Below, one piece after another: positions 18,447 to 18,633 of a stretch of 64,000 nucleotides of DNA (position 1 is the first letter of the stretch; every line of letters begins with the position of its first letter). Made by a program: the position numbers and the translations under genes. Below the pieces are notes generated by a model. That model searched no databases and had not been told where the DNA came from. It saw only the letters and a list, made by a program, of their open reading frames with translations. Source of the stretch: an uncultured Poribacteria bacterium (GTDB taxonomy: Bacteria; Poribacteria; WGA-4E; WGA-3G); contig OX638351.1 in assembly GCA_951813565.1 (NCBI GenBank), forward strand, positions 2,944,001 through 3,008,000. Reading direction: 5' to 3'.

Positions 18447-18475
18447 TTGACACTTCAGAAGGTCTATGCTAAAAT
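18447..18475 (+). promoter_or_regulatory. Antisense sigma70 promoter inside cassette A leader
   Basis: TTGACA-17-TAAAAT with TGn extended -10; identical in copy B. Confidence 0.7.
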
Positions 18476-18481
18476 AGACAC

Positions 18482-18590
18482 CAGCGCTGTCAGATATTTC
18501 CTGGCAGTGCTTCGCATCGGCAGTGGTTTCAGCACTGTCGGTGCATCTAAAAAGCACCTCCGACGTAATCCACGCGAGGCGGATTTTTTT
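18482..18590 (+). ncRNA. Putative ~110-nt cis-antisense RNA (copy A)
   Basis: Downstream of consensus promoter; G-U-containing hairpins 18484-18510 and 18514-18544; terminator-like hairpin plus T7 at 18567-18590. Confidence 0.6.
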
Positions 18591-18604
18591 AACGTCTACG
18601 AGAT

Positions 18605-18633
18605 ATTATAAAACTTTTTGCATTTTTTGTCAA
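18605..18633 (-). promoter_or_regulatory. Sense sigma70 promoter of cassette A
   Basis: Exact TTGACA-17-TATAAT on minus strand. Confidence 0.8.

Follow-up and report, generated by a model that had tools for sequence, protein, structure and literature searches.

The 64,000-nucleotide (nt) stretch of DNA analysed here (the window) spans positions 2,944,001–3,008,000 of the single 5.43-Mb contig of a sponge-symbiont Poribacteria genome and contains two copies, A and B, of a repeated element that lies in front of operons for membrane and secreted proteins, with a predicted antisense RNA opposite the operon leader. Computation shows that two hairpins of this element covary and belong to the antisense strand, and that their apical loops are hypervariable, changing faster than neighbouring synonymous sites. 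From the sequence, we infer that the antisense RNA is made, that it pairs with the leader and that its loops set the specificity of pairing. On balance, we lean towards the reading that the element represents a family of cis-antisense RNAs whose kissing loops are kept different by selection.

A multi-copy element confined to one bacterial family

A DNA search of the genome that contains the window (the host genome) returned seven close copies of the element (identity 91–100 %), in all of which both hairpin stems are letter-identical. As the preliminary description of this DNA had suggested, a covariance model was built from more copies, 35 in total, and the covariation backs both hairpins. This model detected 12 copies in the host genome (the seven close copies and five divergent ones) and, at a threshold of E≤0.001, 443 matches (150 listed and 293 unlisted) in 89 of the 151 sampled genomes of the phylum. 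Matches occur in 88 of 99 other genomes of the same bacterial family (35/37, 50/57, 2/2, 1/1 and 0/2 by genus) and in none of 51 genomes from eight other families, and the highest number per genome is 17. The distribution of the element family is limited to a single family of sponge-symbiont Poribacteria. The genomes in this comparison are related, so that counts across them are not independent.

The Rfam search that had also been suggested returned no match for the element: Rfam 15 matched two tRNAs alone in the whole window, nothing came near any cut-off in the local region at E values of up to 10, and 20 loci with family members gave no matches. No earlier description of the element was found in the literature covered, which excluded subscription journals.

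Hairpins 1 and 2 belong to the antisense strand

The two hairpins of each copy in the window are as follows.

18483–18511, + strand: hairpin 1 of copy A, 11 base pairs (bp), hypervariable 7-nt loop at 18494–18500
18514–18544, + strand: hairpin 2 of copy A, 12 bp, hypervariable 7-nt loop at 18526–18532
56214–56242, − strand: hairpin 1 of copy B, loop AATAATC at 56225–56231
56181–56211, − strand: hairpin 2 of copy B, loop GTGGTAA at 56193–56199

On the + strand, copy A folds into two hairpins at −46.6 kcal/mol (z score −5.67, 0/200 shuffles as good), compared with −36.6 kcal/mol (z score −3.02) for the − strand. This reproduces the two-hairpin fold of 11 and 12 bp that had been claimed for the antisense RNA, and the four stem pairs reported to be G-U on the antisense strand and C-A on the sense strand are as described. 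When 86 distinct copies were aligned to the model, 94.9 % of cells were paired, against 20–54 % in slid-partner controls. Changes on both sides were found in 20 of 28 pairs (161 cells), bearing out the proposal that the hairpins are real structures; 0/500 shuffles reach this value, which is not a probability, and the 86-copy alignment was fitted to the model. A plain MAFFT alignment of 35 copies gave 93.9 % paired cells and double changes in 12 of 28 pairs. In the 86-copy alignment, compensatory changes affect 10 of the 11 pairs of hairpin 1, and 98.8 % of the cells of hairpin 2 are paired.

The strand was assessed by counting pairs that can form on one strand alone (G-U versus A-C cells). Read on the antisense strand, hairpin 1 has 120 G-U versus 14 A-C cells and hairpin 2 has 156 versus 2 (276 versus 16 together), and the + strand is more stable over both hairpins in 85/85 copies (−35.7 versus −22.6 kcal/mol). 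Twenty further copies from other genomes, most of them of a second genus, returned 75 G-U versus 2 A-C cells in the same hairpins. The earlier designation of the antisense strand as the structured one is upheld by both the pair counts and the stabilities. These data leave hardly any chance for a reading in which the hairpins act in the sense leader as a sensor of the riboswitch or T-box type, with loops that select a ligand or a tRNA: the leader is indeed long, structured and conserved, but four conserved pairs become C·A on the sense strand, the overall counts of 276 and 16 run against it, the sense strand is less stable in 85/85 copies and Rfam provides no match.

Inspection by eye also revealed arm cores common to hairpins 1 and 2 (18483–18544), namely CUGUC and GGCAGUG. 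The two hairpins may descend from a duplication, and an alternative mutual pairing would be possible in principle.

Facing promoters and a stem-loop at the 5′ end of the mRNA

The element is bounded by two promoters that face each other.

18447–18475, + strand: antisense promoter of copy A, TTGACA, 17-nt spacer with TG, TAAAAT; 11/12 matches in the promoter scan
18605–18633, − strand: sense (operon) promoter of copy A, TTGACA-17-TATAAT; 12/12 matches
56250–56278, − strand: antisense promoter of copy B; 11/12 matches, TG present
56094–56122, + strand: sense promoter of copy B, TTGACA-17-TAAAAT; 11/12 matches
18482–18590, + strand: predicted antisense RNA of copy A, approximately 110 nt, probably starting at the base of hairpin 1, 7–8 nt past the −10 box
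18562–18596, − strand: 5′-terminal stem-loop of the sense mRNA of copy A, outer stem GACGU/ACGUC plus inner hairpin
56129–56163, + strand: 5′-terminal stem-loop of the sense mRNA of copy B; no U7 on the antisense strand

The scan located the convergent promoters that had been claimed for copies A and B, and returned 6 promoter-like sites in 1.1 kb versus 2.5±1.7 in shuffles. Across the family, the antisense −10 box reads TAnnnT in 81 of 84 distinct copies (with TG in 75) and the −35 box matches TTGACA at ≥4/6 positions in 76 of 81, while the sequence of the spacer varies freely. This conservation agrees with the proposal that the antisense promoter is a genuine feature. The sense −35 box matches at ≥4/6 positions in 73/84 copies and perfectly in 49, compared with 21/84 and none in shuffled controls, and the sense −10 box ends 6–8 nt from the 5′ stem in 66/81 copies. 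Both promoters are thus conserved across the family, at positions suggesting that the two predicted transcripts would each begin at the foot of a hairpin.

The third stem differs from the first two in the strand to which it belongs. All five pairs of the outer stem GACGU/ACGUC covary, the stem read on the + strand has 7 G-U versus 32 A-C cells, and the sense strand of this third element is more stable in 80/85 copies (−11.9 versus −7.6 kcal/mol). The preliminary description had assigned a third hairpin to the antisense RNA, ending in U7. On the + strand, this DNA does encode an imperfect hairpin followed by T7 (18584–18590), so that a hairpin plus U7 is present in copy A at 18567–18590; however, its stem has an A·C mismatch and escaped the terminator scan, and the minimum-energy fold pairs the 18567–18590 region differently. 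As a feature of the family the U7 hairpin is not sustained, since T-runs of ≥5 occur in 21/84 copies and copy B has TTTATT instead, and the G-U asymmetry assigns the stem to the 5′ end of the sense mRNA. The predicted end of the antisense RNA at U7 is specific to the subfamily of the host genome, and a clear antisense terminator would appear to be a feature of that subfamily only. As most copies have no clear terminator, antisense polymerase may run into the sense promoter.

The opposite strand asymmetry of hairpins 1 and 2 and of the third stem suggests that two RNAs share this DNA, hairpins 1 and 2 apparently being owned by the predicted antisense RNA and the 5′-terminal stem-loop by the operon mRNA. 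This bears on whether the hairpins could act as DNA, either as single-stranded DNA hairpins or as recombination sites that move or exchange cassettes. Multi-copy cassettes with homogenised, common front ends and swapped cargo would suit such a role, and G-T pairs in single-stranded DNA would also yield strand asymmetry. Nevertheless, the two conserved promoters lie at fixed distances with predicted starts at the feet of stems, each strand owns different stems, which is a better fit to two RNAs, and the cassettes encode no recombinase or HUH nuclease; we therefore regard a DNA-level function as quite improbable.

Several repeats adjoin the sense promoters. Immediately upstream of the −35 box of the copy A sense promoter, positions 18641–18662 form an A/T-only inverted repeat, TTTTTTGA-N6-TCAAAAAA, which might act as an operator or in the manner of an UP element; approximately 35 nt around it are common to several copies in the host genome and to loci in two other genomes. 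In contigs of two DNA sequencing runs, 18659 or 18671 is followed directly by 18923, suggesting that a palindromic stretch of ~250–260 nt (18660–18922), which adjoins the copy A sense promoter on its upstream side, is absent in other strains; it looks like an inserted repeat element. Finally, a 68-nt repeat (97 % identity) is found at 44416–44483 and at 55984–56051, the second copy lying just upstream of the copy B sense promoter.

Structure of the sense leader

18332–18597, − strand: sense leader of copy A, approximately 265 nt, of which the first ~115 nt overlap the antisense RNA

RNAalifold analysis of 21 leaders returned conserved long-range stems, GACAG:CUGUC and GCUGGUGUCU:AGAGACCAGC, together with a stem CUACAGGG:UUUCUGUAG that contains G-U pairs when read on the sense strand. 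Inspection by eye adds a hairpin that covaries and covers the Shine-Dalgarno sequence. A further RNAalifold stem, GUGCUU in the leader with AGGCAC beside the Shine-Dalgarno sequence, has one double-change pair and is speculative. The consensus leader fold contains the mirror of hairpin 2. Attenuation of the pT181/pIP501 type, which had been invoked for this element, gains no support, as no terminator-like site turned up in the sense orientation in the leader of either copy A or copy B.

In the sense leader of copy A (18514–18556), a GGAGG lies 10 nt before an AUG (AUGCACC) that opens a 5-codon frame, and the equivalent frame in copy B has 18 codons and runs through the loop. We rejected this mini reading frame as a family feature: the AUG is absent in divergent subfamilies and the frame is probably due to chance. 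Five of the seven close copies (L003–L007) have an insertion of ~40–90 nt in the sense leader at the equivalents of 18383–18394, which is palindromic and resembles a miniature inverted-repeat transposable element, with arms GGGGAATGCC...GGCATTCCCC; this stretch of the leader thus tolerates insertions.

Loops are copy-specific and change faster than their surroundings

Copies A and B differ at 8 positions in all across 18371–18560, four in ATATTTC/AATAATC (18494–18500) and four in GTTTCAG/GTGGTAA (18526–18532). The statement that A/B differences are restricted to the two loops therefore stands, and the length of the core, given as 191 nt, is 190 nt by our recount. The loop pairs of the close copies in the host genome are listed below.

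Copy A: ATATTTC/GTTTCAG
Copy B: AATAATC/GTGGTAA
Others: ACTTTTC/GTGCTAA; ACTGTTC/GGGTTAA; GCTTATT/GTTGGTA; ACTATTC/ATCGGTT (twice)

In the host genome, 13/14 loop columns vary versus 28/166 other core columns (Fisher 1e-8), and 0/46 stem columns do so; the additional close copies here vary in their loops and not in their stems. Both loops differ in 20 of the 21 copy pairs, and no non-cognate pair has more than 4 consecutive loop letters in common. A census of 83 distinct copies from 30 genomes (three rows were dropped, two being weak second hits and one lacking hairpin 2) revealed 76 different first loops, 71 second loops and 79 loop pairs, extending the copy-specificity of the loops well beyond the two copies for which it was proposed. 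Among 157 within-genome pairs, 153 have neither loop in common, one has one and three have both. The apical loops measure 6–9 nt in most copies (range 5 to ~20 nt), and the loop regions of 13–20 nt in some subfamilies appear by eye to consist of an extended stem under a short variable tip. Among divergent members, two in the host genome (contig positions 4864345–4864469 and 4866956–4867080) lie 2.6 kb apart in front of different cargo, and are identical in hairpin 1 including the loop, with second loops TTTACGC and CTCGTAA; four members within ~75 kb on contig C100 of genome G012 (L088–L091) all have different loops.

Any loop change in a pair of cis-encoded transcripts stays complementary, so drift is the null reading. 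Three comparisons speak against drift. The antisense promoter spacer has a pairwise difference of 0.57 across the genus and of 0.056 within the host genome, where the two loops differ by 0.37 and 0.59. In seven copy pairs whose gene 1 sequences (see below) differ by ≤10.6 %, synonymous codons are 6.5–12.8 % different, and in six of these seven pairs the loops differ at 6–9 of 14 positions (43–64 %), more than at the neighbouring synonymous sites; the seventh pair, c3449/c4797, has identical loops and the same cargo type. Across 33 close within-genome pairs from nine genomes, non-loop sites are 2.7 % different and loops 39 %. Although gene 1 has diverged by 45 % between copies A and B themselves, their 190-nt cores match completely outside the loops. 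The core thus appears to be homogenised among copies, with the loops, which lie within it, escaping this process.

These comparisons bear most directly on the possibility, which we consider unlikely but the most serious of the alternatives, that the antisense RNA is real and its loops confer no specificity. The RNA would then act on its own locus by co-transcriptional pairing or interference, and the loops would merely be unconstrained and perhaps more mutable. Changes in a cis pair are free to drift, loop length ranges from 5 to ~20 nt, three within-genome pairs are identical in both loops, and in most copies, which have no clear terminator, antisense polymerase may enter the sense promoter. 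Furthermore, the 45 % divergence of A and B in gene 1 indicates that many copies are old, and their loop divergence of 57 % equals their third-position divergence (57 %). Against this stand the six of seven recent pairs whose loops have diverged by 43–64 % versus 6.5–12.8 % at synonymous sites, and the 5.6 % difference, within the host genome, of a promoter spacer that is unconstrained across the genus. The loops form islands in a tract homogenised between old paralogues, for which drift alone is inadequate, and the strong conservation of two long, stable hairpins exceeds the needs of interference.

A further alternative is that the + strand RNA is a free-standing small RNA, trans-acting or protein-bound, which is located in a leader solely for co-regulation and whose variable loops would recognise some partner besides that leader. 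Selection on hairpins 1 and 2 confined to the + strand, the conserved single-stranded GCACCUCC stretch after hairpin 2 and the presence of the family in front of several unrelated cargo types would all be consistent with such an RNA. However, it always overlaps the 5′ end of an opposite operon with a conserved facing promoter, and the 190-nt core in the host genome is otherwise constant, the complementary strand alone changing with the loops. A free-standing role is therefore improbable.

Cargo operons

The operons downstream of the two copies encode the following.

18074–18331, − strand: gene 1 of copy A, 85 amino acids (aa), one membrane helix and 4 Cys; start taken as the ATG after GGAGG
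17231–18073, − strand: gene 2 of copy A, membrane-anchored coiled-coil protein with a conserved N-terminus and a copy-variable C-terminus
15967–17271, − strand: gene 3 of copy A, secreted Cys/His-rich protein that differs between copies
56401–57937, + strand: cargo of copy B (gene 1, 56401–56640; gene 2, 56637–57326; gene 3, 57323–57937)

All 12 copies in the host genome lie opposite a downstream operon. The seven close copies precede the same type of operon (genes 1, 2 and 3, on the opposite strand), and the five divergent copies precede other secreted proteins, some of which are TolB-like by eye. Gene 1 proteins have 79–85 aa when read from the ATG after GGAGG (the longest frames have 90 aa) and a single helix. 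The gene 2 protein has 111 relatives, mostly with identity in the first 35–55 % of the query; those that are named are ‘hypothetical protein’ of Candidatus Poribacteria. A short H-x-x-H-x-H motif was noted in this protein by eye, and five cargo-family proteins returned no match to the Pfam histidine-triad family at E values of up to 10. No family was found for the cargo proteins in Pfam, NCBIfam or PADLOC, nor a match in the ESM Atlas or a relative in the PDB by sequence.

In relatives, 15 of 29 loci encode a gene 1 or gene 2 homologue on the opposite strand, 136–615 nt behind the RNA start, and none encode one on the same strand. Twenty loci were re-read, comprising the other 14 and six with weak gene 2 matches alone, and most of them begin with a similar protein (‘M-x-K/R-x-M-x-W-G plus helix’). 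Gene 1 is absent from many family members, which start directly with a gene-2-like protein or with other cargo. The varied cargo behind a common element suggests that the RNA module is the shared front end of polymorphic envelope-protein operons.

Proposed mechanism and its weaknesses

In the mechanism that we propose, the operon promoter would start the mRNA at the foot of its 5′-terminal stem-loop, and the antisense promoter, with its extended −10 box, would direct transcription from the base of hairpin 1, yielding an RNA that folds into two very stable, G-U-containing hairpins. Pairing would begin, as in ColE1 RNA I, R1 CopA and FinP, with a ‘kissing’ contact between the apical loops and their complementary loops in the nascent leader, and this step would limit the rate; the antisense RNA would then pair with the first ~115 nt of the ~265-nt leader. 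The stems are near-identical in all copies of a genome, so only the loops could tell cognate from non-cognate leaders; selection would keep them different, making each cassette's RNA a private regulator. Among the possible outcomes of pairing, we rank first repression through interference by convergent transcription together with loss of the protective 5′ structure of the mRNA; next would come remodelling of the long-range stems of the leader, and attenuation, for which no terminator was found, would be least likely.

A number of observations weigh against selected kissing loops and the mechanism built on them. No sequencing run recorded as RNA contains window positions 17900–18900; the DNA runs cover the whole stretch. 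A 203-nt contig over 18412–18574, from a run whose RNA type was guessed, combines the copy B loops with the upstream flank of another copy; this contig may stem from multi-copy core DNA; it provides no evidence either way and was not used. RNase III was not found with three models in the host genome (95 % complete, single contig), and no RNase III scored above the TIGR02191 cut-off in 41 genomes of the family, although control genomes do so; in other genera there were weak hits alone, to the C-terminal part of TIGR02191. The usual route of duplex cleavage is therefore doubtful. The host genome also returned no ProQ/FinO domain and one weak match to Hfq, below the cut-off.

The structure of the two transcripts raises further difficulties. 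At the 3′ end of the antisense RNA, the T-run of ≥5 precedes the 3′ arm in no more than the 21 of 84 copies given above and is a T7 in five, and even the copy A hairpin with its U7 went unflagged by the terminator scan. The consensus leader fold lacks a mirror of hairpin 1, the 3′ arm of which sits in a long-range stem, so a two-loop kiss would need a co-transcriptional time window; by the same token, antisense pairing would have to come early and would remodel the leader. The antisense overlap ends ~135 nt or more before the ribosome-binding site, and in a thermodynamic model of 21 of 23 leaders (two were dropped, having no ribosome-binding site that could be found), blocking the target region leaves the accessibility of this site at 0.443 versus 0.446, with higher values in 11/21. 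Translational control via refolding is neither supported nor excluded by this result.

As regards the loops, their variability alone would fit a simple lack of constraint, and the rate comparison is the sole argument for selection on them; gene conversion may have lowered the synonymous yardstick on which it relies. The three of 157 within-genome pairs with both loops identical indicate that identical loops are tolerated at least briefly.

A more ambitious version of our preferred reading, which we put forward tentatively and hold to be possible but doubtful, is that the family constitutes a library of mutually orthogonal kissing-loop riboregulators. It would comprise hundreds of loop ‘barcodes’ on one invariant two-hairpin scaffold, at most 17 of them in any genome; gene conversion would keep the scaffold uniform and selection would force the loops apart, and the resulting, possibly bistable units would drive surface variation by RNA in a lineage without RNase III. 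If this were true, the family would exceed in size every other natural set of paralogous antisense regulators told apart by loops alone. With hundreds of natural variants of a single scaffold, the long-standing idea that loop–loop contact by itself determines antisense specificity could be tested directly, and RNA circuit design would gain ready-made orthogonal parts. Facing strong promoters would make each unit an independent, possibly bistable switch, and cells of one clonal symbiont population could then differ in the set of polymorphic envelope proteins that they express. For uncultivated sponge symbionts, the element provides a first way into the study of gene regulation, at fast-changing envelope-protein operons, and it prompts one to ask how sense/antisense pairs work in bacteria apparently lacking RNase III.

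Other features of the window

Three further regions of the window were recorded. Positions 61609–62241 hold three tandem copies of a 210-nt unit (99–100 % identity), each containing an 87-nt repeat that is also found at 25830 and 30927. The region 50965–53557 holds three repeat families (264, 167 and 101 nt) that are 72–96 % identical to their reference copy and surround two small open reading frames of 156 and 149 aa without a Pfam family; it adjoins a DDE transposase gene (49420–50478). Two tRNA genes lie 20 nt apart at 42584–42751.

Comparison with known antisense systems

Two properties of kissing-loop regulators are found in the element, namely stable antisense-strand stem-loops whose apical loops are short, and an antisense promoter that lies inside the target leader and faces the target promoter. 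As a chromosomal family of paralogous cis-antisense RNAs, the closest functional parallel is Sib/ibs of Escherichia coli: Han et al. (2010, PMC2943612) describe five chromosomal Sib RNAs that act on their cognate ibs mRNA only and have two variable recognition domains. Sib overlaps the toxin reading frame and translation start, whereas the Poribacteria element overlaps the far 5′ end of a ~265-nt leader, and the Sib target is a toxin of <20 aa, whereas the cargo here is an operon of two to three genes for membrane or secreted proteins. Unlike in Sib, the variable parts of the Poribacteria element are apical loops on invariant stems, and its copy number is higher (up to 17 matches per genome). 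Nor does it resemble type I toxin–antitoxin loci in general, as there is no small hydrophobic toxin as target (gene 1 has 79–85 aa and is often absent) and no overlap with a reading frame or translation start, the overlap ending ≥136 nt before the start of the protein.

The closest structural parallel is FinP/traJ of F-like plasmids, in which a two-stem-loop antisense RNA lies opposite the leader of its target; FinP pairs with traJ mRNA by kissing loops, and point mutations in the loops break this pairing (PMC9977716). FinP covers the traJ ribosome-binding site and needs FinO, whereas the Poribacteria element leaves the ribosome-binding site uncovered. FinP alleles are also distributed over different plasmids, in contrast to a dozen copies on one chromosome. 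Five finP alleles, reportedly studied by Finlay and colleagues in 1986, are said to differ mainly in their loops and thereby to determine plasmid specificity.

Similar logic is familiar from plasmid replication. The antisense RNAs ColE1 RNA I and R1 CopA have extensive structure and loops of 6–7 nt; contact between loops sets their binding rate, and loop changes create new specificities (incompatibility groups). Both control plasmid replication, whereas the Poribacteria element is found before envelope-protein operons, at chromosomal loci on a single 5.43-Mb contig, and does not have a role in the control of plasmid replication or transfer. The primer, leader-peptide coupling or terminator logic of ColE1 and R1 could not be demonstrated for the element, and the leader intrinsic terminator that characterises pT181/pIP501 attenuators is lacking in copies A and B.

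Convergent promoters are a source of bistability in plasmid pCF10. In layout, prgQ/prgX of this Enterococcus faecalis plasmid is the closest parallel, with facing promoters, overlapping transcripts and a small RNA from one strand that controls the operon on the other (PMC3181467). The pCF10 system has operons on both strands and requires RNase III, whereas the antisense strand in Poribacteria carries a predicted small RNA alone and RNase III was not found.

Having no plasmid function, no constant small toxin, an uncovered ribosome-binding site, no induced terminator and no detectable RNase III or ProQ/FinO, the element is a member of none of the systems compared. What is new here is its scale, its invariant scaffold with barcoded loops, its cargo and its host.

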